DNA from: a virus
Virus record (IMG/VR): IMGVR_UViG_3300042898_000958
Direction: 5' to 3' (one strand)
Length of the DNA: 36,273 nt
Part shown: one piece after another, positions 4,172 to 36,273 of the stretch
Layout of the letters: each line of letters opens with the position of its first letter
How positions within the stretch are numbered: the first letter of the stretch is position 1
Notes under the pieces: generated by a model
Databases searched by the model: none
What the model saw: the letters and a program-made list of their open reading frames with translations, nothing else
Told to the model about the DNA's origin: nothing
Position numbers and translations under genes: made by a program

Positions 4172-4230
4172 ATTTGAGAGCTCTATGTTTTTAATTTGAA
4201 TTTACTTGTGAATAAACCGCACTACTGCAA

Positions 4231-4249
4231 AACGTTATGTGCAAGGCTA
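4231..4249 (-). repeat. Post-stop element part A (19-mer identical to 30145-30163)
   Basis: The plus strand reads aacgttatgtgcaaggcta. In sense orientation this is TAG-CCTTGCACATAACGTT, directly after the stop codon of the 54-aa ORF. Confidence 0.85.
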
Positions 4250-4653: not shown

Positions 4654-4690
4654 TTTGCGTTTGTTTTAATTTGCTAGTGTTATTTTTAGT

Positions 4691-4700: not shown

Positions 4701-4704
4701 AGTA

Positions 4705-4734
4705 CAAATGTAAACACATTATTGACAATAGCAA
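4705..4734 (-). promoter_or_regulatory. Candidate Bacteroidota-type promoter (TTG-N19-TACATTTG)
   Basis: In sense orientation: TTG at 4734-4732, a 19-nt spacer, and TACATTTG (=TAnnTTTG) at 4712-4705. Confidence 0.35.
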
Positions 4735-4794
4735 TACACCACCGAAAAAAAAGTTAAAATAATTTGTAACTACTTGATAATGAAAGGGAAAAAT

Positions 4795-5220
4795 TTACCT
4801 GAGTTTCATATACACAACCAGTAAACCACCTAAAACGAAGGCAAGAAAGATAAAATTACGAGCATCACGTATGCGCTCTATTGTGGTTTTATTGCAGGTA
4901 GGAATAAATATAGGAATCGAAACTTTTATTGTATCAATTCTAACAATAGTGTCGGAATCGTATTTGCCGCTTAAATAGATGCTATCATGCATTTTAATAT
5001 ACTTAATGGACAGCTTGCCTTGCTGAATAAATACGCTGTCTATAATCGTACTAAACACGCTATCTATTCGTGTGCTATCAATTACTATTGTATCATGTAT
5101 TACAATAGTTGTATCTGCTTTATCTTGTTTGCAAAACTTTTCTATTGCTTTGTTTTTTGTGTAGCAACCGCTTACTATTGATATAAGTAAGGCTATTGCC
5201 AGTGCGCTTTTTATTTGCAT
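4795..5220 (-). CDS. Candidate unimolecular spanin (N-terminal lipoprotein signal plus C-terminal TMD)
   Basis: Lipobox IVSGC at residues 15-19, a beta-rich middle, and a C-terminal FIFLAFVLGGLLVVYM followed by KLR. This is the same architecture as T1 gp11-type u-spanins. Confidence 0.5.
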   Translation of the reverse strand: MQIKSALAIALLISIVSGCYTKNKAIEKFCKQDKADTTIVIHDTIVIDSTRIDSVFSTIIDSVFIQQGKLSIKYIKMHDSIYLSGKYDSDTIVRIDTIKVSIPIFIPTCNKTTIERIRDARNFIFLAFVLGGLLVVYMKLR

Positions 5221-5359
5221 TTCTACTTTCTATTAATGTTCTTACAAGCCATAATAAGGCGTAGTGTTTGGTAAATTTAAGCGTATCTTTTCTGTTTAAT
5301 ACTATCATACTTTTTTTACAACTATTCCATTAATTGTTTTGCCTGTTTTTAGCGATTGA

Positions 5360-5379
5360 TGCAAGTCATTTGACCTGCA
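5360..5379. promoter_or_regulatory. 20-bp near-perfect palindrome TGCAGGTCAAATGACTTGCA
   Basis: 9-bp arms with one G:T position, in the non-coding region upstream of the spanin candidate. It shares GTCAAATGAC with 4691-4700. Confidence 0.3.
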
Positions 5380-5426
5380 TAATTTTATCAACTTTGCAAC
5401 GATAATACTATACATCATATAAATAA

Positions 5427-5465
5427 ACAAAAAAAAATAGTCCGAAAAAATTAATTATCGGACTA
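5427..5465 (-). terminator. Rho-independent terminator
   Basis: In sense orientation: TAGTCCGA-(12 nt)-TCGGACTA followed by TTTTTTTTTGTTT, about 50 nt after the last gene of the endolysin operon. Confidence 0.7.
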
Positions 5466-5516: not shown

Positions 5517-5663
5517 TTAACGCCTTTTCTTTTTCCCTCGCAAGCCTTTTTTACAATCGTCTAAAATCTTTGCACATAACAGCCGTCTATCATGCTCCGC
5601 TTGTGCTACTGCTTGGTTGCGTTTAATTAGTTCTTCTTCGCTCTTTTCGTGAAAGTAGTTCAT
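5517..5663 (-). CDS. Small basic ORF, 48 aa (below track cutoff)
   Basis: MNYFHEKSEEELIKRNQAVAQAEHDRRLLCAKILDDCKKGLRGKKKRR. Its ATG overlaps the endolysin TGA (ATGA), and the terminator follows. Confidence 0.45.
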   Translation of the reverse strand: MNYFHEKSEEELIKRNQAVAQAEHDRRLLCAKILDDCKKGLRGKKKRR

Positions 5664-7106: not shown

Positions 7107-7955
7107 TTAAATTATTGTGATACCATAAAATTGTCCTTGGTTACGCTCAAGTGTTTGGCGGTTAATAGTGGAGATAACAGAGGGCAAAGCTATGATTTCT
7201 GCAATATATCCATGATGGTTATTTCCTCCCCAAGAATGTTCTGCGCCAATGCTTTGTCTGGTTTGAAAGTCGCCTGCATACCTTCCTGCTAGTGCAGCAG
7301 AAAAGACCCCGTTGGTATACAGTTGCACTAGCCCAGTTGGCGGATTGTTGCTAATCACTTCAAGAAGGCTGTAATCATTACCTATAGTAATGCCAGAATT
7401 TAGCTGCCCACTGGCATAACTTCCCCATTGTGTATTGAAGGCTCCTATTGAATACATAATGTTGTCTACCCGTGTATTAGATGGTGTTGCAGTAAACACA
7501 GTTGCCGCAACTCTGCTAGGGAGAAGCCCAAGGCTGTTAACTACTGCAGTAACAATGCTTTCACCAGCAAGATTTAATGTATGCGTAAAGTAATCATCAT
7601 CACCATCAAAATACAGTGTTGGCTTGCCTTGATGTGTCTCTATCGCACCATTGTTAACAATTTGCGGCTGCAAGCTTGCCGTTGTCTGTGTGGCATTTCT
7701 TCCATTACCACTTTGGTCATACCAAGTGGTGACAAAGCCGTTACCAGTTCCTACAAATGCTAGCAATGCAGCCGTGTTAAGTTCACCACTTGCTGTAAAG
7801 CCAATATCCTGAGTAGCACCGTCACTACTTCTTCTTACATTAATAGCTGCCCCTGAGTAAGCATTACGAAGTTTTCGTAAGCTATACGCAGCAGCACTAT
7901 TTAATCCGTCAAGTATTAATCCCGATGATGAAAAAAAGAAAGCGTTACCGAACAT
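7107..7955 (-). CDS. Receptor-binding/tail-fibre protein (AbfB-like sugar-binding N-domain plus LamG-like domain)
   Basis: AYSLRKLRNAYSGAAINVRRSSDGATQDIGF...WYDQSGNGRNATQ is a motif I recognise from carbohydrate-binding fibre proteins. It is followed by YFDGDDDYF, a jelly-roll-type segment. Confidence 0.55.
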   Translation of the reverse strand: MFGNAFFFSSSGLILDGLNSAAAYSLRKLRNAYSGAAINVRRSSDGATQDIGFTASGELNTAALLAFVGTGNGFVTTWYDQSGNGRNATQTTASLQPQIVNNGAIETHQGKPTLYFDGDDDYFTHTLNLAGESIVTAVVNSLGLLPSRVAATVFTATPSNTRVDNIMYSIGAFNTQWGSYASGQLNSGITIGNDYSLLEVISNNPPTGLVQLYTNGVFSAALAGRYAGDFQTRQSIGAEHSWGGNNHHGYIAEIIALPSVISTINRQTLERNQGQFYGITII

Positions 7956-7958
7956 ATT

Positions 7959-9278
7959 TTATGCATAATTTCGTGACACAGATATTAAAAATTGACTCCC
8001 ATCCCATAATACCGCAATAAGGTCTTTTTGATTTGCAGTTCCAACGTAAACATTTCCACCTCCATTAGCTTGAATTGTTCCTGTTGGAAAAATTAAATTT
8101 CTAGGAGTTGCACCATTAGTTACTTCTATTAATGGTACACTTGCGTTTTGAGCATTCAATAATGTAAGAGTTACGTTGCCAGTTGCCGAACTTAATACAA
8201 GGTCAACTATACTTCCGTTATTCCAATCAATTGTTTGCGTTGTTCCAGTAGGTGTTAGTGTTTGTTTTGTTGTGCTTATTTGTGAAGCTGTAACAACTCC
8301 AGTAATTCTTGCACTACCATTTACCTGTAATCTATCTACTCCGTTATTGGTTGTTGTGTTAATTAAAATAAACCCATCTGCGGTTATTCTAATTCTTTCA
8401 GATGAATTAGTTTCAAATCTTAAAGGTGTACTTCCTAAAGTTGCTATTGTTGATTCTATAGAATTTGAAGATATATTAAACCGTCTTTCAAAGCCAGTTC
8501 CTAAATCAATTTGCGCTCCACGTCCTGCTGCTCCGCCTGCGTTTATTGCAAAAGCAGCGTTGCCTGATGCGCTGCTCATTCCCATAGTTAAATCGTTTGC
8601 ACGACTAAATACATCTGGGGTTGTGCTTATGCCTATATTTCCATTTTCTGTGACTAAAAAACGGTCAATATTATTTGTAATGATTCTATAACTGTGATTG
8701 CTTAATGTTCCACAAAACATACCTATATTAGGAACATTTGATACACGTAAAATAGCATCTACGCCAATTTGGGTTTTAATTCTTAAATTAGTAAAAGCGT
8801 TTGAATCGTTATTAGTATTTTCAAGTAAAAACGATAATCCTGCTGATTGGCTTTCAACAACAGTTTTACTAATAAACCCGCTTGGGTTGCTGTTAGGGTA
8901 GTAAACTGTTGAATCAATACTTCCATCTGCTTTTAAAAACTGACTTGCAGTGCCGCCTGATTTTATTAGTTGGTTTGCTGTTATTGTGTTTGTTCCTAAA
9001 TTTACATTTGCAGTTGCACCTGTATATGGTACTAAACCTGCTATACTTGGAATACTTGGGAATGTTGCTAAGCTACCATCACCACGTACAAATTGACTTG
9101 ATGTTCCACTAAACAATAAATAAGGCAACGAATTAAAAGCCGTAGTCCCATTGCCTAATTTCATCTTTCCTGTATCTCGCTCAATCACTAACTGTTTATC
9201 CAATAATATTGGATTTTCAGTAGCTAACTGCGCAGCAGTACGTGCAAATTGCCTTAGAGGTATATTTAATTCGCTCAT
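7959..9278 (-). CDS. Tail fibre protein
   Basis: The N-terminal ERDTGKMKLGNGTTAFNSLPYL is the common tail-fibre N-terminal motif (DTGK.K.GDG...LPY). The body is Gly/Ser/Thr/Asn-rich and repetitive. Confidence 0.65.
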   Translation of the reverse strand: MSELNIPLRQFARTAAQLATENPILLDKQLVIERDTGKMKLGNGTTAFNSLPYLLFSGTSSQFVRGDGSLATFPSIPSIAGLVPYTGATANVNLGTNTITANQLIKSGGTASQFLKADGSIDSTVYYPNSNPSGFISKTVVESQSAGLSFLLENTNNDSNAFTNLRIKTQIGVDAILRVSNVPNIGMFCGTLSNHSYRIITNNIDRFLVTENGNIGISTTPDVFSRANDLTMGMSSASGNAAFAINAGGAAGRGAQIDLGTGFERRFNISSNSIESTIATLGSTPLRFETNSSERIRITADGFILINTTTNNGVDRLQVNGSARITGVVTASQISTTKQTLTPTGTTQTIDWNNGSIVDLVLSSATGNVTLTLLNAQNASVPLIEVTNGATPRNLIFPTGTIQANGGGNVYVGTANQKDLIAVLWDGSQFLISVSRNYA

Positions 9279-9964: not shown

Positions 9965-10019
9965 TATCTTTTTTTAGATAGTTTTGTAATTTTTCTATAT
10001 TTTTTTTCGATACATTCAT

Positions 10020-10613
10020 TTAGCACCATTTGCAACTTTGAAACTTACCTCTGTCTATTCTTAGACCTTTAAAGTTATGTTCACCCATACAACAATCATC
10101 ATCTCCTAAACTTAAACCACTTGTGTAGTTTGTACGCTTAGCAAAAATAGTGTCTATTTGAGCATTAGGTTGGTTGAGATACAACGGATATTTATTTGGA
10201 TTTGATAGTAAAAATTTTGTCAATCTCTCAGCATACCATTCCGCTTTATTCTTTGCTCTATTTAACACGTATTGCAACTCGTCCATGCTAACAGGGTTCA
10301 TGTTTTCAGCAGTCATTACCCCTACTGACTTATTAAAATACTTGTAAGTTAAGTCCATTGGCAATTCAAATTTGCAATACCAAATCATGCACCGAGTAAT
10401 GTAATCGTCTAACAATGTACGATAGTCATTCGTGAGTGAATTTGTCCTTACTTGCTTTAATAACTCGTTGTATAAAGACGTACCTAAAATGGGTAATATA
10501 TACTCTTCCTGCACGTCTAATATTGCAGGAGAGACAACCTTCATGTCTACATTTTCTTGTAGTATGCTGCGTTGCTTTAATGTTGCTTCGCTTAGTAATA
10601 TTACTTGTGCCAT
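10020..10613 (-). CDS. Possible head-tail adaptor
   Basis: It lies directly after the portal gene. The N-terminal I...I..VQEEYILPILGTSLY resembles gp6-type connector proteins. Assignment is weak. Confidence 0.4.
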   Translation of the reverse strand: MAQVILLSEATLKQRSILQENVDMKVVSPAILDVQEEYILPILGTSLYNELLKQVRTNSLTNDYRTLLDDYITRCMIWYCKFELPMDLTYKYFNKSVGVMTAENMNPVSMDELQYVLNRAKNKAEWYAERLTKFLLSNPNKYPLYLNQPNAQIDTIFAKRTNYTSGLSLGDDDCCMGEHNFKGLRIDRGKFQSCKWC

Positions 10614-10614
10614 G

Positions 10615-12579
10615 TTATTTACGTTTAACTAATTCCGCGTTCCAAATATGCCTACAATAAGGCACGTTTACATTCATGTTAGGGTCGTGATACCATCCAC
10701 CTCTACGACTAAATGCATCATAATTTGGGATACCATACACCTGCCCTAGCTCGTCACCTATTTTGTCAATCTCTTCACGTGTAAAGTAACGTTGGTTATC
10801 CATCATAGCTTGACAAAAATCTCTACTCTCACCAATTAAAGCAGGTGCATCTGGTCGCAATCCATAGCGGTAACGAATAAACAAATCTTTAAACGTTGGA
10901 ACTTTTGCATCCTCACCTTTTGCCGTTGCAATCTGTCCGCCTTTCCCTACTTCTACTAATCCATCGGCTGCTAATGTTTCTAATGCATTACTTACAGCCG
11001 TTTTATCTATCTTTAAAACTTTGCCTATTGATTCAACTGTTATGTTAGGTGTCTTTTTAATCAAATCTAAAACGCCCTGCTCTACTTTATCAAGTGCAAA
11101 ATCTTGTTTGCCAAACACAAATTTTTTATGTTTAACCAACTCAAACTTTTCAACTGGCTCACCATACTTTAAAAACACTTCAATGTCTAGGCTGTCATCT
11201 GATTGGCTGTTAAAGTGCGAACACTTGCTAAATGCTGCTCCCGTTGCGGAATCTGTTGCTACTATATCACCGCCCTCAACAGGTGGTCTATTAATTATTG
11301 CACGAACTTCATTTTTCGTCAAGTTATTTAACACCTTAGTAGCAACCAATGGGCTTAATGCGTTTAAGTCATCTACTACGCTTGAAATTTGCGCCTTAGT
11401 ATCTAATGGCTCACGTCCTACTATCTCCCTCATCTCATCTTTAGTTAAGATACTCATTAAAGTAGCTTCACCAAATGAAGGCATGATAGGCTCAACAGGT
11501 ATAATACTTAATCTACCTTTAACTGGTGCGAATAAGTTGTATATCTTTTCTTGTACTTTTTGACGTGGTGTAACGTATGTATTTTGAAACAAATTAAACG
11601 CATCAACCATTTCGTTTCTGCCACCTAATTGCCCCTCTACACGAACACCAAATAACATAGGTGAAGTTATTTTATGCCCTACAAATATCTCTTGCTGTAT
11701 CGTCTCATTTAATGCGTTGTATTTGTCCGCAAAATCTCCAGCCCCTAAATCTAAGATCTCTGGTACACGTGTAACATCATCCACAAAATCAATTAAGAAT
11801 ACACCAGCTTTATCTGTTGGTGCAAACTTAGCTTTCATTTTATTTTCTACACTCTTAATCTCGTCATCATTTGGAACTCCATTTTTGAAAACAATCATTT
11901 TAGATCCTTTAAATCCGTTTTGGATTTCGGCTCGGTGAAAGTTAGCTATTTCAGCATCTGTTATAATTGAAGGAACTGCCCCAATATAATCAGGTAAAGT
12001 GTATACGTCTAAATTCGGACGATATGTTTTGTAGTAAAATAGTGATTCTTTTGCTTTGGTTTCAGGTTCCCATGCTGGATAAGTGTAATCTATTTTAGGT
12101 CTTGAATTTTCGCTGCCATCCTCATTTATCCAATCATCACTAATATAAAAATTAGTATTATCTTCGTTTGAACGAACCTTGCAATAATCTATGTGGGATA
12201 TGTAATTCTTTTTCTTGTCCTTAGACTTTGTTACCTTTAAATAACAACCATTAAACAGCTCCACGTCTAATGTAGTCTTTGCCAATAAATCGTCAAGAGT
12301 TTCATATGGGTTAGGACTATCAACGTATGTTTTTAATAACGCTTGCTCTTCGCCTTCCATGCCGTTGGCGTTAAACGTAAAGCCTTGCCCTTTAATGTAC
12401 AACTGTTTATTGGTTATAATAGCGTTATGTTTTGCGCTTCGATTAAACAATAAAACGAGGTACTGGGGATAGTCATTTGTTTCACCGTACTTAACCCAAT
12501 CTTCACCTCTTACCTCGACAAATGTAGGTACTTTATCGTTTGAGAATTTTACGTTTATTAGCGTGTTATTGTAAGCCAT
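10615..12579 (-). CDS. Portal protein fused to a winged-helix segment and a MuF/SPP1-gp7-like C-terminal domain
   Basis: The N-terminal WVKYGETNDYPQYL...SAKHNAIITNKQLYIKGQG is portal-like. Residues ~503-544 (VLDLIKKTPNITVESIGKVLKIDKTAVSNALETLAADGLVEV) are MarR-type wHTH-like. The C-terminus (FCQAMM...YFTREEI...RRGGWYH...PYCRHIW) is MuF-like. Confidence 0.65.
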   Translation of the reverse strand: MAYNNTLINVKFSNDKVPTFVEVRGEDWVKYGETNDYPQYLVLLFNRSAKHNAIITNKQLYIKGQGFTFNANGMEGEEQALLKTYVDSPNPYETLDDLLAKTTLDVELFNGCYLKVTKSKDKKKNYISHIDYCKVRSNEDNTNFYISDDWINEDGSENSRPKIDYTYPAWEPETKAKESLFYYKTYRPNLDVYTLPDYIGAVPSIITDAEIANFHRAEIQNGFKGSKMIVFKNGVPNDDEIKSVENKMKAKFAPTDKAGVFLIDFVDDVTRVPEILDLGAGDFADKYNALNETIQQEIFVGHKITSPMLFGVRVEGQLGGRNEMVDAFNLFQNTYVTPRQKVQEKIYNLFAPVKGRLSIIPVEPIMPSFGEATLMSILTKDEMREIVGREPLDTKAQISSVVDDLNALSPLVATKVLNNLTKNEVRAIINRPPVEGGDIVATDSATGAAFSKCSHFNSQSDDSLDIEVFLKYGEPVEKFELVKHKKFVFGKQDFALDKVEQGVLDLIKKTPNITVESIGKVLKIDKTAVSNALETLAADGLVEVGKGGQIATAKGEDAKVPTFKDLFIRYRYGLRPDAPALIGESRDFCQAMMDNQRYFTREEIDKIGDELGQVYGIPNYDAFSRRGGWYHDPNMNVNVPYCRHIWNAELVKRK

Positions 12580-28442: not shown

Positions 28443-28494
28443 ATGACAAATATAAACAAAAGCTAATGAAATAAAACGGTTACAAATTTACCCA

Positions 28495-28519
28495 AGTTCG
28501 GAGTGCCGAACTATCGGCA
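28495..28519 (-). promoter_or_regulatory. Two mutually exclusive hairpins upstream of the sigma gene
   Basis: In sense orientation, TGCCGA-TAGT-TCGGCA (28519-28504) and AGTTCGG-CACT-CCGAACT (28512-28495) share 9 nt. Confidence 0.3.
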
Positions 28520-28542
28520 GTTTTTGCGTTAGCAGCAAGTTT

Positions 28543-28812
28543 TTAAACTTTTTCTGCCATCGCACGTTGTTTCGCTTCAAACTTTTCAAGTTCTTCTTTG
28601 AAATTGTGCATTGCTGAAATCATACAGGTCAATCCGCCTTCATAATTTGCAATCCATTCATCCCAACCATACGAGCATTTAATATCGTGCAGTTTTCCTC
28701 TTGTTTTATTAATTTCGCAACGGAGTTCTTCAATTAATTCACTCATTGGCTTATCCATTTCTTCTGCACTTTTGTAGTAGATTGGATTTCTGTCTTTGTT
28801 TATTCGTTCCAT
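28543..28812 (-). CDS. Hypothetical early protein
   Basis: 89-aa ORF flanked by intergenic elements. Confidence 0.55.
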   Translation of the reverse strand: MERINKDRNPIYYKSAEEMDKPMSELIEELRCEINKTRGKLHDIKCSYGWDEWIANYEGGLTCMISAMHNFKEELEKFEAKQRAMAEKV

Positions 28813-28991
28813 TATTATATTTTTTAGTTGTTAATTCCTACGCTCAAAAAGTTTAAAAACCAGACTGCTAACAGCACCTTTACGCAATGGGTGGTTCTGT
28901 GCATTTTTTGAAGTTTTTTCTTTAGACATAATTTTGTGCTTTTAATTTAGTGCAGTGGTTAAAAGCCCCCACTGCGTAAGGCTGCAAACCG

Positions 28992-29303
28992 TTAGCAGAT
29001 ATGTTTGCCAACAATCCACTTACCGACAATCCAGTCGTGACTATTTCGATTTCCTACATTGAACATTCTGTGACAAGTATGATTGTGTATGCAATGCTCA
29101 AAGACAACCGATTTGCCTTCATTGTGCTTAACAATATAATCAGCATCATAAAACTCAGACCATCCCGTTTTGCGGTCATATCTTTGAGCAAATCTAATAG
29201 TCACTTTATCCCCGATTTTAAGTTCATCCAACGAAAACACATCTGCTAACAAGCGGTTAGCGTCATTGCCGTTTTCGTGGTTAATTGAAGTTTTGTTTTC
29301 CAT
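28992..29303 (-). CDS. Hypothetical early protein
   Basis: ATG at 29303 (MENKTSINHE...). The track extension to 29381 starts at TTG and reads through the intergenic repeat. Confidence 0.55.
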   Translation of the reverse strand: MENKTSINHENGNDANRLLADVFSLDELKIGDKVTIRFAQRYDRKTGWSEFYDADYIVKHNEGKSVVFEHCIHNHTCHRMFNVGNRNSHDWIVGKWIVGKHIC

Positions 29304-29383
29304 ATCAAATTTTGTTTTTAAGTTTAAATTTTGTGTTCCAAAGTCGGCAACGAACGCCAACCGCCAAACCGTTAGTGGCAACC

Positions 29384-29707
29384 CTAAGAAACCACGTAGA
29401 TAGCCGTTGGACGTTCATATTCTTTTATTCCCTTTTCGCCTTGACCTTCAGTAGTCCAATCTGGAACGCTACCTGTGTTTATCGTATCACATTCCACAAT
29501 GTACATCACTTGACATCCCATAATTATCATTTCCCCAATTTCTATGAACCAATTTGCGTGTGAACGATTAGGAATAAATCCAAGCGTTTTTCCAGCTTCG
29601 TGTACTGCTTTTAGCGTCCCGTGAACAGCTTTGTATTGTTTGCCATCTTTTCCATAAAACCAACCTTGTGTGGTTACTAATACCTTTTTGTTTATGAAAT
29701 TTTGCAT
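29384..29707 (-). CDS. Hypothetical early protein
   Basis: 107-aa ORF. Its stop TAG is followed by GGTTGCCACTAACGGTT. Confidence 0.55.
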   Translation of the reverse strand: MQNFINKKVLVTTQGWFYGKDGKQYKAVHGTLKAVHEAGKTLGFIPNRSHANWFIEIGEMIIMGCQVMYIVECDTINTGSVPDWTTEGQGEKGIKEYERPTAIYVVS

Positions 29708-29749
29708 ATTTTTAAGTTTTGTATTTCAATTAAAGTTTGGTTAGGGCTT

Positions 29750-29761
29750 CTTCGCCAAGCC
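29750..29761 (-). repeat. Post-stop element part B 12-mer (sense GGCTTGGCGAAG)
   Basis: cttcgccaagcc is also at 30467-30478 and 32508-32519. Confidence 0.85.
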
Positions 29762-29770
29762 AGATACCAA

Positions 29771-30004
29771 TTAAACAGACGGTATTAAATCACCTGTATA
29801 AAATGCGTCCAAATCACTTTTAAACCATTCAGGATGTTCATCAACCCAAACATCTAAAGCTTGATGCTTGTAATTGTTTGGATTTTTCCATTTATCCATC
29901 TCCGTTTCTTTGTGAATAATTATCTGGACTTCTCCAATTTTTGTATGTGTATGACGGTTTTGAATATCATACATTAAAGAAATGTGTTGCTTTGCTAAAC
30001 TCAT
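29771..30004 (-). CDS. Hypothetical early protein
   Basis: 77-aa ORF. TAATTTTG (TAnnTTTG) lies 4 nt upstream of the ATG. Confidence 0.55.
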   Translation of the reverse strand: MSLAKQHISLMYDIQNRHTHTKIGEVQIIIHKETEMDKWKNPNNYKHQALDVWVDEHPEWFKSDLDAFYTGDLIPSV

Positions 30005-30144
30005 TTTACAAAATTAACTTCTGCCAACAATATATTGCCAATAGTGGGGCAGACGTGCCACTATTGAGCATTGGTACTACTATTAAACTTTGTGTTGTGG
30101 CGGTTTAGTAGTGCCTTGAAATCCCCGCCATCGGCAATATTTGG

Positions 30145-30163
30145 AACGTTATGTGCAAGGCTA
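30145..30163 (-). repeat. Post-stop element part A (19-mer identical to 4231-4249)
   Basis: aacgttatgtgcaaggcta, including the TAG stop of ORF 30161..30358. Confidence 0.85.
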
Positions 30164-30358
30164 AGATTCAATCTCCGTAATGACTAACCCTCGTAAATCA
30201 AGTTTATAGTCCTTAACTTTATCTTTGTTTTGAATATTTTTAGCCCATTCAATAATTTCGTTCAATGTTGTAAATTCATTAAACACTCTTTCTTGCCATA
30301 CATTTCTCCATTCATCCTCGTTTACTCGAATAGTTCTTTCAAATTTTACTAATATCAT
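30161..30358 (-). CDS. Hypothetical early protein (65 aa)
   Basis: ORF bracketed by inverted GTTATGTGC 9-mers (30148-30156 and 30398-30406). Confidence 0.55.
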   Translation of the reverse strand: MILVKFERTIRVNEDEWRNVWQERVFNEFTTLNEIIEWAKNIQNKDKVKDYKLDLRGLVITEIES

Positions 30359-30882
30359 TTCGTTTTCAAATTAAATTCAGTGCTGATAAACCGCCCAGCA
30401 CATAACAGCGGTTTGGCAAAAGCTGCCATAAACATTGTGCGAACTTTGAACTTTCCTTTAGGCAGCCTTCGCCAAGCCGCAAAACGGTGGCAACCGTTAA
30501 GATTACCACGTTCCACAATTTCACCAGCATATATTTTGACTGTTCCCTTTTTAGTTGTGACTTTTAAGCCGTTTGAAAAATCAACTGAATAAGGATTTGT
30601 TTCAATTTCCCACCCCCTAAACTTTGCTATGAAATATGGTTTATCACTTCCATATCCATTTACAAACTTTATCAGATCATACTTTTTCCCTTGCAACCTT
30701 GACAAAATCCATTTTGACGGCTCTCGATATTCAGTTGATTTTTCACCAGTCACCATAACTTCAAATGGCATCTTTGAAAGCGTTAAGTGAAGAATACGGC
30801 AGCCACCAACAGCACTCTTGCTCATCACGGGTTTCATGCTTTCAAAGGGTGTTCCTTCGTTAAAATAATCTTCTGTTTTCAT
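30355..30882 (-). CDS. ASCH-domain-like protein with a C-terminal extension translated from the intergenic repeat
   Basis: ATG at 30882 (MKTEDYF). LHLTLSKMPFEVMVTGEKSTEYRE...IKFVNGYG is ASCH-like. The last ~45 codons (from ~30497) read through parts A and B of the repeat to a TGA that overlaps the next ATG. Confidence 0.55.
   Translation of the reverse strand: MKTEDYFNEGTPFESMKPVMSKSAVGGCRILHLTLSKMPFEVMVTGEKSTEYREPSKWILSRLQGKKYDLIKFVNGYGSDKPYFIAKFRGWEIETNPYSVDFSNGLKVTTKKGTVKIYAGEIVERGNLNGCHRFAAWRRLPKGKFKVRTMFMAAFAKPLLCAGRFISTEFNLKTK
30366..30377 (-). promoter_or_regulatory. Early start-module 12-mer (sense AATTTAATTTGA)
   Basis: 8 nt upstream of the ATG at 30358. Confidence 0.4.
30408..30480 (-). 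repeat. 73-nt inverted repeat/long hairpin (20-bp arms, 33-nt loop)
   Basis: In sense orientation, GCGGCTTGGCGAAGGCTGCC pairs with GGCAGCTTTTGCCAAACCGC: 17 Watson-Crick pairs, 2 G:U and 1 mismatch. The antisense strand pairs worse (1 wobble, 2 mismatches). Confidence 0.7.
30467..30478 (-). repeat. Post-stop element part B 12-mer
   Basis: cttcgccaagcc. Confidence 0.85.
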
Positions 30883-30929
30883 ACTATAAATTTTACTTGT
30901 TAAGCCCGCACTTCGCAAGGCTGCAGGCG

Positions 30930-31205
30930 TTATAAGCCATTTAGGACAGCCCGTAATTCAGAAACTTCAATCTGTAATTTGCTTATAAAATCTGTAACCC
31001 ATTTCTGTTGTTTATAATCATTACACACCGGCATTCCATTGCTTACCTTTCTCGTTTTTTCTCTTTGACATTGGTTAGTCATCCACAAATCACAACTGCC
31101 ACAAACTTTAGGTAGTTCATTTATCTTTTGTTCCTTAGCCCTAATATTGTCTATAATTTGACGCCTATTATCTGCCTTTGCAATAAAGTCCCATATATCA
31201 TTCAT
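30930..31205 (-). CDS. Cys-rich small protein (possible Zn finger)
   Basis: CGSCDLWMTNQC...PVCNDY. 91 aa. Confidence 0.55.
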   Translation of the reverse strand: MNDIWDFIAKADNRRQIIDNIRAKEQKINELPKVCGSCDLWMTNQCQREKTRKVSNGMPVCNDYKQQKWVTDFISKLQIEVSELRAVLNGL

Positions 31206-31211
31206 TGTTTT

Positions 31212-31223
31212 TCAAATTAAATT
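31212..31223 (-). promoter_or_regulatory. Early start-module 12-mer (sense AATTTAATTTGA), overlapping the XRE gene's stop
   Basis: 7 nt upstream of the ATG at 31205. Confidence 0.35.
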
Positions 31224-31415
31224 TATCGTAAGTTGACAATTTAAAGCTTCTGCAATTGCGCTTAAATTGTTAATTGACACATTAGCACTACCACGCTCTA
31301 TTGAACCGATTGTTACCACGCTTAAATTAGCTTTAGCAGCTAATTCTTTTTGGCTAAGTTTTGCAGTTAGGCGAACGATTCGTATTCGTTCGCCTAGTAT
31401 TTTTAAGTTAGTCAT
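31212..31415 (-). CDS. XRE/Cro-type HTH transcriptional regulator
   Basis: LGERIRIVRLTAKLSQKELAAKANLSVVTIGSIERGSANVSINNLSAIAEAL is a canonical HTH_3 pattern. Confidence 0.85.
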   Translation of the reverse strand: MTNLKILGERIRIVRLTAKLSQKELAAKANLSVVTIGSIERGSANVSINNLSAIAEALNCQLTINLI

Positions 31416-31642
31416 TAGTATAAAAAGCCTTTTTCGTGAATGTCAATAAACTCATAATGGAACTTTTGTTCAGTTTCTGAAAGTTCAGATTTTAAAGCAA
31501 TCTCATTTTCGGTAAAAGGTTCTATTCCTAATCCAAATTGAGTTTCAGACAAATCAATAATTTCTTGTTTACTTGAAGCTAAAACTTCAATTTTTGATTG
31601 CTTATTTAAAGCCTTTGTAATTGTTACGATGTAATTGTTCAT
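31415..31642 (-). CDS. Small acidic protein (75 aa)
   Basis: 13 D/E versus 7 K/R. Its stop shares one base with the XRE ATG. Confidence 0.55.
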   Translation of the reverse strand: MNNYIVTITKALNKQSKIEVLASSKQEIIDLSETQFGLGIEPFTENEIALKSELSETEQKFHYEFIDIHEKGFLY

Positions 31643-31644
31643 AT

Positions 31645-31917
31645 TTAGTTATATTGGTATTCTTTAGTTAATTGGTTGAAAGTTCTGTTTTCATTGTTAC
31701 CTGCAAATTCAGCTAATTTATGACCGCTTCTTTTTGCTCTTGCTCTTAATTGATTATGAACGTCATTGAACAAATCAAAAGCATTACCGTTAAAATTTTC
31801 ATTCTCTACAATCCAAAGCATCAAATTCATGTAGCTTTTTAAATTGTCTTCGCCAGCTACTTTAGTTATTTTTGCGATGATGTAAGATTTTCTGTTTTTT
31901 AAGTCTTGAATAGTCAT
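31645..31917 (-). CDS. Hypothetical protein (90 aa), first gene of the XRE operon
   Basis: ORF downstream of the candidate promoter at 31941-31970. Confidence 0.55.
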   Translation of the reverse strand: MTIQDLKNRKSYIIAKITKVAGEDNLKSYMNLMLWIVENENFNGNAFDLFNDVHNQLRARAKRSGHKLAEFAGNNENRTFNQLTKEYQYN

Positions 31918-31940
31918 TTTGTTATTGCTTTATTGCTCAA

Positions 31941-31970
31941 CAAAGATAAATATAGTTATCATAATAACAA
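31941..31970 (-). promoter_or_regulatory. Candidate promoter TTG-N19-TATCTTTG with palindrome GTTATTATGATAAC in the spacer
   Basis: In sense orientation: TTG at 31970-31968, TATCTTTG at 31948-31941, the palindrome at 31968-31955, and the tandem AGCAATAA x2 at 31937-31922 in the leader. Confidence 0.35.
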
Positions 31971-32005
31971 ATATAATTTAATTTTATTTTCTAAAGTACT
32001 GATAA

Positions 32006-32456
32006 TCAAAGAGAAAAAAAACAACACAAGTTTAAGAAAACAGCGACCGTGCTAAAATCTAAACTTAGCTGTGATTTAAAGTCATTAAAACGTTTTTCTT
32101 GTTTCTCATAATATTCTTGGTCTATTTCAAAACCTACAAAGTTGAACCCGCCTTTATACGCTGCAATCCTACTGCTTCCACTTCCTAAATGGGTATCTAA
32201 AAAGTTCCGTAAAATATTTCTCCGTTGGCACTTCCATATCCCAATTACCATTTTTGTTATGGTATCTTTTAAACCTTCCACCGCTATTTACTACACTTTC
32301 CCCCAATCCATAAGGCGGGTCAACTATTGCTAAATCAAAATGGTTATCGTTAAAGCGTTTTAATGCTGTTACACAATCTTCCAAATACACCTCCGACAAA
32401 GGCACTGCTGGTAACACGGGTTTGGCAAAATTGCCGTTCGTTTCTTCTATCAACAT
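32006..32456 (-). pseudogene. DNA N6A/N4C methyltransferase remnant (internal deletion plus frameshift)
   Basis: ORF 32169..32456 carries FDLAIVDPPYG...WDMEVPTEKYFTELFR (motif IV side). ORF 32006..32281, in another frame, carries LDTHLGSGSSRIAAYKGGFNFVGFEID (motif I). The two motifs abut, so about 100 aa of the normal core are missing. Confidence 0.65.
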
Positions 32457-32507
32457 TCGTTTTTAATTTTTAAGTTTAGTAATTCTATTGAGCTTCGGGT
32501 TCAGCCA

Positions 32508-32519
32508 CTTCGCCAAGCC
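32508..32519 (-). repeat. Post-stop element part B 12-mer
   Basis: cttcgccaagcc. Confidence 0.85.
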
Positions 32520-32527
32520 CTTCTACG

Positions 32528-32806
32528 TTATAAGACATTTTCAAGGACGTCCTCAATCCTATCTAAAATATTGTTACTATCTTTTTCTATTAAAGAAATT
32601 CCATCTCGCCCAAAACACTCGTACAAACATATTAAATATCCTTTTTCTGCGTTTGAACTTTCAATACTAATTACAAAACCACCTGCTATAAACTTTATCC
32701 TATCACCGCTTTCTACATCAGTAACTGAATACTCACAAGCATTATAGTTAGAAAAACGGCTTATAATATCGGCTTTGTGCAAGTGGGGGTTATCTGCTAA
32801 ATTCAT
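32528..32806 (-). CDS. Hypothetical early protein
   Basis: 92-aa ORF. Its stop TAA runs into CGTAGAAGGGCTTGGCGAAG. Confidence 0.55.
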   Translation of the reverse strand: MNLADNPHLHKADIISRFSNYNACEYSVTDVESGDRIKFIAGGFVISIESSNAEKGYLICLYECFGRDGISLIEKDSNNILDRIEDVLENVL

Positions 32807-32884
32807 ACTTTCGTTTTTAAATTAAGTTTTGTGGTGGGTTGAAACTTTCGTGCTTTAATGCCCCACCTGCACAAAGCCGAGAAC

Positions 32885-32896
32885 CGTTATGTGCAA
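32885..32896 (-). repeat. Post-stop element part A core (sense TTGCACATAACG)
   Basis: cgttatgtgcaa lies directly after the TAG of the 49-aa ORF. Confidence 0.8.
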
Positions 32897-32898
32897 CC

Positions 32899-33048
32899 CT
32901 AAAACGGCCACAAACACCATTTGCAGTTGCTATAATCAGCATCTTTATCAAACTCAAAGTAAGTATCAAAAGCACCATAGCCGTTTTCTGCTATAATCAC
33001 TCTTTGACCTTCTTTTGGCACTCCTGTTTTAAAATCAATCCAATTCAT
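32899..33048 (-). CDS. Small ORF, 49 aa, DUF551-like (below track cutoff)
   Basis: MNWIDFKTGVPKEGQRVIIAENGYGAFDTYFEFDKDADYSNCKWCLWPF. The W-I-x-x-K/P...V-I/L pattern is that of DUF551 phage proteins. The post-stop element follows. Confidence 0.5.
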   Translation of the reverse strand: MNWIDFKTGVPKEGQRVIIAENGYGAFDTYFEFDKDADYSNCKWCLWPF

Positions 33049-33088
33049 GTTTATTTGTGTTCTAAATTTCGTTGTTTCATTTTCGTTA

Positions 33089-33412
33089 CTAATTAAATTT
33101 CAAAGTCTGCTCTAGGACTTCAACTTGTCTTTTCAATTCTTTTATATGTTTTTGCTGCTTCGCTATTACTTGCTCATATTCGCTTATTTTAACTTCGTGT
33201 ATGAAGTTTTGCGCTACTGTTTGCCGAATAGTATCATAATCGGTTGAAAGTTGCTTAAAACGCATTATTTGGCTTTCTGTTGCTTTTACTCTTAACTTCA
33301 TCCCCATATCGAAAAAAAAAGAACTAAAGTTAATGAGCGCCTTAGCTACTGAATGCTGGTGATCGTAGTAAGGTGTTACTGATTTGCTCGTTTTTAATAT
33401 TTCGGTTATCAT
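33089..33412 (-). CDS. Hypothetical coiled-coil protein
   Basis: 107-aa ORF whose ATG shares one base with the helicase stop (TAATG). Confidence 0.55.
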   Translation of the reverse strand: MITEILKTSKSVTPYYDHQHSVAKALINFSSFFFDMGMKLRVKATESQIMRFKQLSTDYDTIRQTVAQNFIHEVKISEYEQVIAKQQKHIKELKRQVEVLEQTLKFN

Positions 33413-35803: not shown

Positions 35804-36273
35804 TTAGTTTTTTTTAAATTGGTTAAACCATTCCTCAGTGGTTCTATCGTCATTGGTAGTTAAATAGTGCATAAAACTAATTAAAATCTGAATCACTTCT
35901 CCCTCACTATACTTATTCTTGTCTTGTTCTTGTTTAGGTTCTTCTTTTGGAATGATGATTTTCCAACCATATTTAGTTTGGAATTTTCCATTATGTTTTG
36001 ACAAATCAACTTCAACCTCAACATACTCACAAGTAGGATTCTTTACAAACCATTCTAAGAACTCATCATCAATAGCTTGTACGCCATCTTTGATTAAGTC
36101 TTGGTCTGTTGTTAGGATGATTTTTTTGCAATTATCTTTATGTCTTGTAGAAATTACATCAAAATTGTTACACCAAACATCATCAAGTTTAGTACATTTT
36201 TCAATATGAAACCCATCAGATTCTCCTGTGATTTTGAATAATTCAACCAAATACCAATCTCCTTCTTTAATTT
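35804..36273 (-). CDS. Junction-spanning gene, C-terminal part (continues from 281->1)
   Basis: The frame is open to the window end, and 36147-36273 duplicates 1-127. See feature 1-281. Confidence 0.7.
   Translation of the reverse strand, partial: IKEGDWYLVELFKITGESDGFHIEKCTKLDDVWCNNFDVISTRHKDNCKKIILTTDQDLIKDGVQAIDDEFLEWFVKNPTCEYVEVEVDLSKHNGKFQTKYGWKIIIPKEEPKQEQDKNKYSEGEVIQILISFMHYLTTNDDRTTEEWFNQFKKN
36147..36273. repeat. Direct terminal repeat, copy 2 (identical to 1-127)
   Basis: Same 127 nt as the window start. Confidence 0.9.

Follow-up and report, generated by a model that had tools for sequence, protein, structure and literature searches.

Along the array of small early genes in the phage genome analysed here, related GC-rich elements lie directly on or after the stop codons, and the question is what these elements are. 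The window is the whole 36,273-nt stretch of IMGVR_UViG_3300042898_000958, a lytic-type Flavobacterium phage in which the minus strand is the sense strand for all genes. A preliminary description of the locus took the conserved sequence, rather than one fixed fold, to be what is kept, and listed a terminator, a processing site and a recombination boundary among the possible roles. The analysis establishes a common fold with covarying arms, complementary cassette ends, breakpoints at TAAC, homologous hairpins in bacteria and a cargo rich in methyltransferase matches. The elements are one half of long hairpin sites like those that bound integron cassettes in Bacteroidota. We put the probability that the junctions are attC-type recombination sites delimiting gene cassettes at about three in four; as integron-type cassette boundaries, they would mean that the small early genes are kept by the phage as exchangeable cassettes.

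The stop-codon elements and their fold

Checked on the minus (sense) strand, the motif coordinates of the preliminary description are all correct. Part A follows TAG at 32901, 30163, 29386 and 4249, and its 15-mer is found 7 times at up to 3 mismatches, where 1.76 matches are expected (0/100 shuffles). Part B follows TAA-CG at 32530, 30932 and 28994, and TAA at 29773. The enrichment claimed for the 9-mer GCACATAAC/GTTATGTGC holds (5 copies versus 0.40 expected; 0/100 shuffles reach 5), and its reverse-orientation copies are matching boxes at the opposite ends of two cassettes (30398/30148 and 5572/4234). The 12-mer GGCTTGGCGAAG does occur exactly three times (29750, 30467 and 32508), but its enrichment alone is weak (3 versus 0.89 expected at up to 2 mismatches); 6/100 shuffles reach 3 matches, so that this test carries little weight by itself.

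The motifs described at the junctions are thus present, but only half of each element had been seen and its distal partner was overlooked. Part A is the cassette-end box (..TTGC-NNN-TAAC), which often provides the stop codon, and Part B forms the 5' arm in a hairpin of about 20 bp. The 3' arm lies about 120 nt downstream, usually within the first codons of the next gene, with GTTA-NNN directly after it; past Part B, the complementary stretch comes some 60-70 nt later (34 nt in the compact J4). The loop contains the AT-rich start module and an ATG. On the sense strand, cassette n-1 ends with ..TTGC-N'N'N'-TAAC, followed by a 2-6-nt spacer, the 5' arm of about 20 nt and the loop; the 3' arm, a 1-2-nt spacer and GTTA-NNN-GC.., which opens the body of cassette n, come next. 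Seven complete hairpins and four remnants were found in the window.

A scan of the sense strand for TAAC...GTTA pairs with a duplex dG of -24 or lower gave 8 hairpins in the window, compared with 0-2 in each of 20 dinucleotide shuffles, both strands combined. Six of the seven junction hairpins of the array have a dG between -24.8 and -41.1 and the seventh, J3, has -22.1; two more matches at or below -24, namely 7779->7661 and, at 30151, an alternative pairing, were left out of the junctions. Folded as single-stranded DNA, 5 of 6 elements reach z scores of -2.2 to -4.5. Covariation was assessed in 338 elements from phage loci, which fall into 127 arm-sequence clusters. Compensatory changes occur at all 14 of the 14 stem pairs (371 cells versus 151 +/- 9 in shuffles, 0/500), and the arm covariation score is 0.632 against 0.13-0.32 in slid controls. 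The sense-strand duplex is the more stable one in 306 of the 338 elements, with 811 G-T pairs on the sense versus 344 on the antisense strand. The arms are imperfect, their G-T wobble pairs fit the sense strand only, and TAAC/GTTA closes the stem. The copy-specific local hairpins noted earlier do exist, but the idea of a conserved sequence in place of a fixed fold has to be reversed: there is one common fold, a long TAAC/GTTA-closed hairpin with strongly co-varying arms. The same 3' arm is moreover translated in two frames (MLIEEQNGNFAKPVL.. and MIDRITEQPFCQTRV..), and one or the other of them is the frame used in 57 of 60 long fused ORFs; this two-frame translation is a constraint at the level of the nucleic acid.

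Junctions of the array

All features below lie on the minus strand. J1 (32755..32898, duplex dG -41.1) begins with the 5' box GGTTGCACATAAC (32886-32898) after the TAG at 32899-32901; its arms (5', 32860-32881; 3', 32768-32789) enclose a 70-nt loop with the start module and an ATG at 32804-32806, and the 3' box ATTATAAGCCGTT occupies 32755-32767. Its minimum-energy fold as single-stranded DNA is a 20-bp long-range stem (z -4.54), and its similarity to the Muminvirus junction that precedes a methyltransferase gene is 75-81%. In J2 (32403..32539, dG -24.8) the TAA of the 5' box AATGTCTTATAAC (32527-32539) is the stop codon itself, and 5/6 variable bases of this box complement those of the J1 3' box. 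The 5' arm (32501-32521) includes GGCTTGGCGAAG, the 3' arm is at 32417-32437, the loop carries the ATG (32454-32456) of a methyltransferase remnant, and the 3' box GTTACCAGCAGTG is at 32403-32415. The whole-element single-stranded DNA fold of J2 is weak (z +0.35); the hairpin also occurs in filifjonk/mumin phages, in at least 120 viral contigs and in at least 120 bacterial contigs. J3 (30798..30941) is degenerate, with a dG of only -22.1. Its 5' box AATGGCTTATAAC (30929-30941), 5' arm (30904-30925), ATG (30880-30882), decayed 3' arm (30811-30832) and 3' box GTTGGTGGCTGCC (30798-30810) keep the 122-nt spacing typical of the family, and homology to the close relative L128 stops just past ATGAAAACA in the loop.

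J4 (30394..30508, dG -32.0) has a compact form: a 5' arm at 30462-30481, a 34-nt loop, a 3' arm at 30407-30427 and the 3' box GTTATGTGCTGGG at 30394-30406, beyond which lie a small hairpin and a start module, that of the gene 30161-30358. Its 5' box is a remnant, GGTTGCCAC^CG, from which the TAA appears to have been deleted, so that the ORF 30355-30882 reads through the element; this 175-aa ORF matches phrog_625 at residues 29-95 (profile 2-71/98). J4 folds as RNA (z -3.52) and as DNA (z -3.63) and is 87.6% identical across 136 nt to LR756502.1, a 642-kb uncultured phage. The 5' box of J5 (30016..30160, dG -28.1), CCTTGCACATAAC at 30148-30160, follows the TAG at 30161-30163 and is complementary to the J4 3' box (GTTATGTGC/GCACATAAC), which makes up two of the five 9-mer copies. 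The J5 arms (5', 30122-30141; 3', 30031-30050) enclose a loop with a 21-codon mini-ORF, and the 3' box GTTGGCAGAAGTT (30016-30028) precedes the ATG of the next gene at 30002-30004; L128 retains J5 only from the mini-ORF ATG onward. J6 (29735..29773) is a half element, in which the TAA stop at 29771-29773 is followed by TTGGTATCTGGCTTGGCGAAGAAGCCCTAACCAA, a 5' arm with GGCTTGGCGAAG that is folded as a local hairpin. No distal 3' arm was detected for J6, which is 76% identical to J2 across 54 nt, through the start module (family D4).

J7 (29238..29383) has a duplex dG of -38.0 and a single-stranded DNA fold of z -2.67. Its 5' box GGTTGCCACTAAC (29371-29383) follows the TAG at 29384-29386, the arms are at 29338-29366 (5') and 29251-29278 (3') with a loop ATG at 29301-29303, and the 3' box is GTTAGCAGATGTG (29238-29250). 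This box is matched at 6/6 variable bases by the 5' box of J8 (28860..29003; dG -30.1, single-stranded DNA fold z -3.07), CATATCTGCTAAC at 28991-29003, the TAA of which is the stop codon. The J8 arms are at 28960-28986 (5') and 28873-28899 (3'), the loop has the ATG (28927-28929) of a 32-codon ORF, and the 3' box is GTTAGCAGTCTGG (28860-28872). The last cassette of the array is closed by a terminal box, ACTTGCTGCTAAC (28528..28540), which is complementary to the J8 3' box GTTAGCAG.. at 4/6 variable bases plus GTTA and is followed by a small hairpin, not a long one.

Outside the array, an isolated remnant (4217..4249) consists of the TAG at 4247-4249, the box CCTTGCACATAAC at 4234-4246 and a 5'-arm-like GTTTTGCAGTAGTGCGG at 4217-4233 that has no 3' partner. 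Over 32 nt, which take in the final codons of the gene upstream, it shares 88% identity with the J5 box region (family D17). An isolated 3' box, GTTATGTGCAA (5570..5580), lies within the 5' end of the ORF 5517-5663 and reads as the reverse complement of a box that lies 1.3 kb further downstream in the sense direction, at 4234-4244; it has no hairpin before it and is therefore read as a fossil cassette start.

Proposed cassette exchange and its alternatives

The variable bases past GTTA and those that precede the next TAAC are reverse complements of each other. In the window and Muminvirus, the 3' box of hairpin n, compared with the reverse-complemented 5' box of hairpin n+1, agrees at a mean of 5.4 of 6 bases versus 2.7/6 in random pairings (P < 5e-5), and in IMG/VR contigs 168 of 215 neighbouring box pairs match at 5/6 or better versus 4.3% of random pairs. 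Such reverse complementarity between the box after one hairpin and the box before the next is the hallmark of integron cassettes: a circularised cassette therefore rebuilds a perfectly paired site, as in integrons. The phage cassette cargo is rich in DNA methyltransferases; the methylase matches among 150 cassette ORFs comprise 29 to N6/N4, 8 to C5 and 4 to D12 families, with single matches to MT-A70, Dam and Mom.

The comparison of relatives proposed in the preliminary description shows that the elements stay while gene content varies, and of the roles it listed the boundary for swapping small accessory genes is the one that the evidence backs. In Muminvirus, all the indels and replacements examined have their breaks at TAAC(GTT). 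In L131, a close relative of the window (95-99% identical), one cassette change breaks exactly at the TAAC of J7, and a different cassette-end box (AATGGCAGG) precedes the TAAC where homology begins. Between the window and its nearest relative, L128, several breakpoints fall outside TAAC; they lie at the start codon within hairpin loops, or at a direct repeat of 27 nt. Homologous or illegitimate recombination of the ordinary kind thus reshapes the array as well. The same hairpin module is paired with many different boxes on both sides, which requires crossovers on both sides, unlike the single point of canonical attC.

At least 120 genome contigs, almost all of them from Bacteroidota, contain an 18-mer of the J2/J4 3' arm. 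The loci L251 and L253 (Flavobacterium terrisoli) encode a tyrosine recombinase, named 'site-specific tyrosine recombinase/integron integrase' by NCBI, which scores 216-233 bits on NF040815. Downstream of it are 4 to 11 or more cassettes with 113-126-nt TAAC..GTTA hairpins between them. Against the integron-integrase profile TIGR02249 the bacterial recombinases score 194-206, under the cut-off of 265, and the middle of the profile, where one would expect the IntI-specific domain, is unmatched. ICE-like regions of Flavobacteriales (L254-L256) carry resistance-type cassettes with the same hairpins between them. In the bacterial arrays the hairpin folds on the strand opposite the genes (18 cassettes versus 3). 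The phage gene is on the folding strand, so the phage cassettes are inverted relative to the bacterial ones. This inversion, and the carriage of the translation start by the hairpin loop, are new.

During phage replication the sense strand would fold as single-stranded DNA, a tyrosine recombinase would cut near TAA|C, and cassettes could be swapped between co-infecting phages or with host arrays. No recombinase was found in the 40 window ORFs screened against Pfam, and the enzyme that would act on the phage sites is for this reason probably encoded by the host; for viral contigs, the 25 commonest Pfam families of 110 flank ORFs include none either. The A-rich start and ATG lie within the loop in many phage cassettes, so that the 3' arm and GTTA box become a translated N-terminal leader; in others a short leader ORF stops just ahead of the gene's own start.

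It is unlikely that the elements are instead conserved linkers, in the sense of T4 PeSLs or lambdoid boundaries, at which co-infecting phages swap adjacent genes by homologous recombination without a site-specific recombinase. The L128 breakpoints in the loop at the common start module or codon, and the 27-nt direct repeat flanking one insertion, fit such linkers, as do the identical hairpin modules with many different flanks, the presence of NinG/Rap but no integrase in the window, and YqaJ-type exonuclease domains in 2 of the 110 flank ORFs of viral contigs. Homologous recombination, however, neither creates nor maintains a cassette-specific end complementarity of 6-14 nt; it leaves the covariation of the arms unexplained, the same sites adjoin a dedicated tyrosine recombinase in bacteria, and the promoter signal of PeSLs is absent.

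The AT-rich module had been taken for a promoter/start module; it is a translation start within the hairpin loop, not a promoter. Sigma-70-like sites are not enriched (13 versus 16.2 expected), nor is the Bacteroidota -7 motif TAnnTTTG, which was seen by eye directly upstream of a single junction start codon (30009-30016). Alternatively, the hairpins may work mainly in mRNA, where a long stem would show the A-rich start in an unstructured loop and insulate initiation from adjoining sequence in a host without Shine-Dalgarno pairing, or would stabilise or couple translation of the polycistronic early transcript, with mobility as a by-product. In phages it is the mRNA strand that folds, RNA tolerates G-U pairs well, J4 has an RNA fold of z -3.5, and the start codon is within the loop in 64 of 192 phage cassettes. 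The 3' arms in the window start about 18-30 nt past the ATG, too distant to block initiation, and leader ORFs stop beside the real start in J4, J5, L005 and L006. As the main function this is quite improbable: the homologous bacterial hairpins fold opposite the gene strand, their stable fold is thus absent from the mRNA and the common constraint is at the DNA level, while cassette-specific end complementarity and TAAC breakpoints are left unexplained. An mRNA role is plausible as an addition in phages.

A role of the elements in transcription termination or RNase processing between the early genes is very improbable, although GC-rich hairpins directly past stop codons and a 20-bp stem that may be an RNase III substrate would suit it: the hairpins have no U-tract after them, there are 4 terminator-like sites versus 2.8 expected, the single sense-strand match (29261-29245) lies in the J7 3' arm and box with no stop codon before it, and cutting both stem arms would part the start codon from the gene body in fused cassettes.

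Relation to known systems

As attC-type sites, the phage elements share with those of integrons imperfect hairpins of about 45-135 nt with structure conserved more than sequence, terminal ..AAC / GTT.. boxes, first cassette bases complementary to the end box, and an AAC box that is the point of cassette gain and loss; their arms are homologous in nucleotides to the sites that part cassettes beside the integron-type tyrosine recombinase of Flavobacterium and other Bacteroidota chromosomes (GGGCTTGGCGAAGGTGGC...GCCACTTTTGCCAAACCCGT). They differ in that neither an integrase nor attI was found in the phage, its genes are on the folding strand and thus inverted with respect to those of bacterial cassettes, the translation start and ATG are in the loop and the 3' arm is coding, crossovers appear on both hairpin sides, and the unpaired spacer is asymmetric, in place of a canonical central spacer with extrahelical bases. 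The recombinase of the Bacteroidota arrays, too, falls below the curated cut-off for integron integrases.

The PeSLs of T4-type phages, consisting of an early promoter and a stem-loop, are repeated modules that bracket small variable early genes, mark mosaic boundaries and are thought to act via homologous recombination. The window elements are likewise repeated stem-loop modules around small variable early genes at mosaic boundaries, so the analogy drawn earlier is a loose resemblance, but they show no promoter signal, their stem encloses the translation start, and each cassette has its own complementary end-box pair, as in integron attC sites.

With no integrase found among the screened ORFs of the phage, the array is an integrase-less attC cluster like those (CALINs) reported in virulent phages by Qi et al. 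(2023, Front Microbiol, PMC9892861). In the part of that paper available, the examples include the Flavobacteriia phage P12002L with methyltransferase cassettes, in which two sites are predicted; our scan finds further hairpins there, and 7-12 per array here. P12002L_attC1, from this Polaribacter phage, belongs to the element family of the window, with the same boxes and arm type, and the strand listed by the authors as its bottom strand is the one on which the flanking methyltransferase genes read in sense. It is the one family member tested experimentally, with class 1 IntI1, and of six phage sites it alone was not recombined (PMC9892861). The same part of the paper mentions neither Flavobacterium nor Muminvirus, nor the inverted orientation, the loop start codon, two-frame leaders or a link to chromosomal arrays of Bacteroidota. 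Resistance genes of Riemerella anatipestifer with a 140-bp attC-like 3' stem-loop integrate without flanking homology (PMC13148043). By this description the likeness extends to Flavobacteriales hosts, a stem-loop of about 140 bp that travels with the gene and homology-independent integration; the Riemerella cassettes differ from those of the window in being bacterial, with the gene upstream of the hairpin.

Hairpins at the junctions of the early-gene array

The junctions between the small early genes of the window are attC-type cassette boundaries, that is, sites of the kind at which integron cassettes recombine, set in an array without an integrase. Seven of them are hairpins (J1-J5, J7 and J8) and one is a half element (J6). 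Each hairpin is laid out as a 5' box ending in TAAC, a 5' arm, a loop, a 3' arm and a 3' box beginning with GTTA, read on the minus strand, which carries the genes according to the ORF pattern. The preliminary description had placed two motifs, Part A and Part B, at the stop codons of the array, and its coordinates for them are all correct, on the minus strand. In J4, Part B (GCGGCTTGGCGAAGGCTGCC) pairs with the downstream GGCAGCTTTTGCCAAACCGC, and this distal pairing identifies Part B as the 5' arm and Part A as the box that immediately precedes the hairpin.

The recurrence described earlier largely withstands statistical testing. The 9-mer GCACATAAC occurs five times (0.40 expected; none of 100 shuffles reached five), and Part A, taken as a 15-mer with up to three mismatches, seven times (1.76 expected; none of 100 shuffles). 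The 12-mer GGCTTGGCGAAG does have its three exact copies, but is weak when two mismatches are allowed, since 6 of 100 shuffles reached three. The 9-mers found in reverse orientation are explained by the cassette end boxes being mutual reverse complements. The stop codon of the phage cassette ORFs is the TAA of TAAC in 68 and lies exactly 12 nt upstream in another 68, and these two placements account for the classes 'TAA-CG' and 'TAG followed by Part A' of the preliminary description.

When each TAAC was compared with each downstream GTTA-like site, scoring the duplex between the flanking 30-34 nt, six array junctions were among the strongest pairs genome-wide and the seventh was weaker. The TAAC-to-GTTA distances of the seven hairpins are 122, 115, 122, 93, 123, 124 and 122 nt. 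The real sense strand gave eight hits at a dG of -24 or below, against 0-2 on both strands of twenty dinucleotide shuffles. The minimum-energy fold of the single-stranded DNA is the long-range stem in J1 (z -4.5), J4 (-3.6), J8 (-3.1) and J7 (-2.7); local hairpins are preferred in J5 (z -2.2), and the fold of J2 is weak. A further pair, TAAC...ATTGTTAAC at 7661-7779 on the minus strand (duplex -26.7 kcal/mol, 118-nt span), lies within a 282-aa ORF (7107-7955), in the stretch of large ORFs that follows the terminase. Matching boxes were looked for at this pair and none were found; it may be a chance or unrelated structure.

Inside the hairpin loop lies an AT-rich start module, together with the ATG of the gene that follows. 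The first 15-25 codons of this gene take in the 3' arm and the GTTA box in J1, J2, J3, J7 and J8; in J4 and J5 both sit inside a short leader ORF ending at the start of the gene. The outer boxes are TAAC and GTTA in most elements, with ATTA in J1 and GTTG in J3 and J5.

Cassette ends, breakpoints and gene content

The bases that follow GTTA are the reverse complement of those preceding the next TAAC. The pairs in the window are GTTATGTGC (30406) with GCACATAAC (30151), GTTAGCAGAT (29250) with ATCTGCTAAC (28994), ATTATAAG (32767) with CTTATAAC (32530), and GTTATGTGCAA (5580) with TTGCACATAAC (4244). Fourteen neighbour pairs from the window and Muminvirus match on average at 5.4 of 6 bases, against 2.7 in random pairs (P < 5e-5), and the two boxes of one hairpin at 2.5 of 6. 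Among the matches listed for IMG/VR, 168 of 215 neighbour pairs agree at five or more of the six bases, compared with 4.3% of random pairs. In integrons such complementarity relates the core site at the start of a cassette to the inverse core site of the cassette's own attC.

An isolated cassette-end box lies at 4234-4246, and just downstream of it are two tRNA-like genes on the minus strand (3830-3941 and 4042-4171). Both match the Rfam tRNA model end to end (37.1 and 30.9 bits), and in each the D-arm is separated from the T-arm by an insertion of ~40-60 nt. ARAGORN called no tRNA in the window, these two stretches included. They could be intron-containing, permuted or decayed tRNAs. At the gathering threshold Rfam had no match in the array, and tRNA-like matches elsewhere only.

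Nucleotide searches with the window matched solely Flavobacterium siphophages of the genus Muminvirus, and solely around a methyltransferase gene. Filifjonk9-1 has three units more than mumin6-1, which in turn has one more than mumin6-3, and in mymlan6-1 one unit is replaced. All these breakpoints fall in TAAC(GTT), at a resolution of 4-7 nt; the hairpin is kept and the preceding box is changed. The Muminvirus array ends in the junction TAAC|TACAAT, which puts the crossover at the C or ahead of it. Since hairpin modules are also joined to different 3' boxes, a second crossover point exists.

Two near-identical relatives of the window, L128 and L131, are present in IMG/VR. Homology between the window and L131 at J7 starts exactly at TAAC; the preceding box differs, and in L131 it matches that locus's own preceding 3' box. 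The breakpoints against L128 lie in loops at the start codon (30874 and 30071), at a 27-nt direct repeat (33076-33114) and inside a decayed methyltransferase gene (32197). Their location outside TAAC indicates that ordinary recombination also acts on the array. In L128, the closest relative, a two-gene insertion (7808-8577, opposite 33076-33114 of the window) lies between the 27-nt direct repeats (CAGACTTTGAAATTTAATTAGTAA..), one end of it being a truncated 5' arm, and exemplifies non-site-specific rearrangement within the array.

The window begins and ends with an exact 127-nt direct repeat (1-127 and 36147-36273) and is thus a circularly closed, complete genome of ~36.1 kb. Pfam matches include a DnaB-like helicase, NinG/Rap, a DnaA-type HTH, ParB_N, a terminase and an M15 peptidase; the 40 ORFs screened had no Pfam match to an integrase, resolvase or tyrosine recombinase. 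The array carries a methyltransferase remnant, phrog_625, phrog_22562 and genes of unknown kind. The methyltransferase gene (32006-32456, minus strand) is split into two overlapping ORFs by an internal deletion, which fuses the N-terminus with its DPPY region to the C-terminal GSGSS motif. The same gene is truncated differently in L128 (9236-9604 of that locus), and the cassette has apparently decayed independently in the two sister genomes. ORF 30355-30882 (minus strand) reads through J4, the box of which is GGTTGCCAC-CG where J7 has GGTTGCCACTAACG; the stop appears to have been removed by in-frame loss of TAA from the box. The phrog_625 match of this ORF is limited to residues 29-95, so that its last ~50 residues are probably read-through.

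Selection on the fold and rejected readings

An 18-mer taken from the 3' arm of J2/J4 was found in at least 120 IMG/VR contigs. The window and the IMG/VR loci among the matches listed yielded 338 hairpins in 127 arm clusters, each self-complementary. All 14 stem positions show compensatory changes in 89 dereplicated arm pairs, and the 371 compensatory cells compare with 151 +/- 9 in shuffles, none of 500 of which reached the observed value. The covariation score is 0.632, against 0.13-0.32 with the partner slid, in a test somewhat favourable to structure because the anchor for the arms was the duplex of each sequence itself. G-T pairs number 811 on the sense strand and 344 on the antisense strand of the 338 elements, and the duplex is more stable on the sense strand in 306 of them.

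The 3' arm could be read as coding for a conserved N-terminal leader peptide (AKPVLPAV, NRLLADV, KGAVSSL). This reading was rejected because the frame is not constant: one and the same 3' arm is translated in two reading frames in different contigs, and 57 of 60 long fused ORFs use either of them. Translation in two frames means that the conservation of the arm is not explicable by peptide constraint. These comparisons place the selection on the fold, at the level of the nucleic acid.

The preliminary description had likened the junctions to the promoter-stem-loop cassettes (PeSLs) of T4-type phages, which combine an early sigma-70-type promoter with a stem-loop. A stem-loop is present, but the promoter half of the comparison did not hold: sigma-70-like sites number 13 in place of the 16.2 expected, and the Bacteroidota -7 motif TAnnTTTG 61 in place of 60.4, being directly upstream of only one junction start codon by eye. 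The sole TAnnTTTG clusters in or next to the array, at 31941-31975 and 28447-28490 on the minus strand, lie outside the hairpins in AT-rich gaps; the first is upstream of gene 31645-31917, the second downstream of the last cassette. They are likely to be genuine promoters and to divide the array into separate transcription units.

Another function suggested earlier, that of a terminator, was also abandoned; an intrinsic terminator consists of a GC-rich hairpin and a U-tract. Terminator-like sites (4 against 2.8 expected) are not enriched, and the single sense-strand match falls in the 3' arm and box of J7 and does not follow a stop codon. A Xer/dif-like site was considered for the resemblance of GCACATAA to a dif arm, and rejected since TAAC is preceded by three bases that differ from cassette to cassette and an 11-6-11 layout is absent. 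The end boxes of a MITE or TIR transposon do not fit either, as those found here vary between cassettes except for GTTA/TAAC and no direct duplication flanks the cassettes; nor do hairpin ends of the IS200/IS605 type or piggyBac-like TTAA insertion, with one hairpin per unit and, again, no duplication. Remnants of methyltransferase 3' ends are dismissed because the blast matches cover the junction hairpin and not coding sequence.

Bacterial and phage counterparts and comparison with integrons

In a species-representative genome collection at least 120 contigs contain this 18-mer as well, nearly all of Bacteroidota and some megabase-sized among the matches listed. The bacterial hairpins are ~122-126 nt long, with a conserved, non-coding loop and the genes on the other strand. 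Their cargo (GNAT acetyltransferases, TPR proteins, DUF4291, SRAP) looks like typical cassette cargo. In three bacterial loci a tyrosine recombinase stands at the end of the array. Its score on NF040815 ('site-specific tyrosine recombinase/integron integrase'; cut-off 220) is 216-233 bits. On TIGR02249 (cut-off 265) it reaches 194-206, in two stretches that leave the middle of the profile uncovered. In Bacteroidota the family numbers thousands. In the bacterial locus L251 an attI-like stretch comes after the recombinase, with the junction GAGTGCTAAC|TAGTTT, which matches the box of the first hairpin; the array there has four hairpins with matching boxes. Flavobacterium terrisoli has the recombinase and then at least 11 cassettes, with TAAC..GTTA hairpins of 113-125 nt on the strand opposite the ORFs. 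The elements of the window are homologous, at nucleotide level, to the sites of these integron-type arrays of Bacteroidota.

Three Flavobacteriales loci (L254-L256) carry the recombinase at 10001-11035 and cassettes separated by hairpins of the window's kind. The Pfam domains of these cassettes (RrnaAD, erm-like; FAD_binding_3, Transpeptidase, Pterin_bind, Adenyl_transf, Hexapep and Lactamase_B) suggest antibiotic-resistance genes, and with the adjoining relaxase/MobC genes each locus resembles a mobile array of cassettes carried by an integrative element. The loop is highly conserved across bacterial families (L170, L172, L136, L152, L160, L181 and L188) and has a direct repeat within it, CCACAAATGTTGATGCGGAG ... 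CCACAAATGTGTCTGCGGAG; such a loop might bind a protein or encode a small RNA. The phage elements examined, those of the window included, have the AT-rich start module in its place.

Among the matches listed, 150 dereplicated phage cassette ORFs include 29 matching N6/N4 methylases, 8 matching C5 methylases and 4 matching D12 methylases, with one match each to MT-A70, Dam and Mom and three to YopX; most have no match. No recurrent recombinase was found in the window ORFs screened and 110 flank ORFs of the viral contigs among the matches listed, the sole related domains being one TnpB and two YqaJ. The same junctions occur in huge uncultured phages, L005 (LR756502.1, 642 kb; 4578-5460) and L006 (LR745206.1, 635 kb; 4387-5056). 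One such junction is 87.6% identical to J4 over 136 nt, and no other similarity to that genome was found.

Integron cassettes are well known, and integrons are on record in Bacteroidota (PMC8618304). Clusters of attC sites without an integrase have been described in virulent phages by Qi et al. 2023 (PMC9892861), whose examples include Polaribacter phage P12002L with methyltransferase cassettes. In that study P12002L_attC1 (TGCTAACGG...TTGTTAGGC) was predicted by HattCI only and was the sole site of six that IntI1 did not recombine. This site lies between two methyltransferase genes and has the boxes and arms of the window's element family; its bottom strand, as listed there, is the sense strand of the flanking genes. 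In Riemerella, aph(3')-IVb integrated with a 140-bp attC-like 3' stem-loop and without flanking homology (PMC13148043). The Muminvirus description mentions variable methyltransferases, and not repeats or hairpins (PMC7077304). The literature found makes no mention of the inverted orientation, of the translation start in the loop with leaders in two frames, or of the breadth across Bacteroidota phages.

We tentatively propose, at a probability of roughly 0.4, that virulent Bacteroidota phages keep inverted integron-type cassettes of their own, the attC hairpins of which have been remodelled to carry a translation start and an N-terminal leader, and that, while infecting, they borrow a host integron-type tyrosine recombinase, by which anti-restriction methyltransferases and further early genes are exchanged between phages as well as with host arrays. 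Both the recombinase at work and the folding of the DNA are what we infer here. Boundaries of the attC type offer a concrete and testable mechanism by which lytic phages of a phylum important in the environment and the gut would exchange their small early genes so rapidly. DNA methyltransferases, which plausibly counter host restriction, are numerous among these genes. The accessory gene pool of the phages is thereby tied to integron arrays in Flavobacteriales hosts, and certain of these arrays seem, by their Pfam domains, to hold cassettes for antibiotic resistance on ICE-like elements. The exact cassette boundaries allow candidate anti-defence genes to be harvested from hundreds of phage contigs. 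A recombination hairpin with a translation start, read in two frames, is unusual for attC sites and could serve engineering.

Compared with attC sites, which measure ~57-141 bp, the TAAC-to-GTTA spans are 93-124 nt in the window and peak at 83-86, 115-116 and 121-124 nt in the viral contigs among the matches listed. The invariant AAC/GTT triplets are largely present (J1 has ATT), and the purine-pyrimidine pattern of R'' (RYYYAAC) and R' (GTTRRRY) is often broken, as in CACTAAC and GTTACCA. In attC sites an unpaired central spacer and extrahelical bases set the choice of strand. The spacer here, read from the sequences, is asymmetric, with ~2-6 nt 5' of the hairpin stem and 1-2 nt 3' of it, and stem position 14 is a conserved G-T pair; canonical extrahelical bases were not identified in the elements. 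In integrons the crossover lies at AA|C (G|TT) of one box, and the breakpoints in Muminvirus, like that between the window and L131 at J7, fall within TAAC(GTT), to within 4-7 nt. As in integrons, the box at the start of a cassette complements the one that begins its own attC, not its neighbour's. A CALIN is a cluster of at least two attC-type sites within a few kb without an integrase; the window, a closed genome of 36.1 kb, has seven hairpins plus four remnants, and no integrase was detected among the ORFs screened. The orientation departs from that of integrons, in which the gene precedes its attC and lies opposite the folding (bottom) strand: among the matches listed, phage cassettes with a clear ORF have it on the folding strand in 90 cases and opposite in 2, whereas bacterial ones have it on the opposite, canonical strand in 18 and on the folding strand in 3. 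A complete integron needs an adjacent integrase with the IntI-specific domain and an attI site, and the window has no integrase among the 40 ORFs screened; the homologous bacterial arrays possess a tyrosine recombinase and an attI-like junction.
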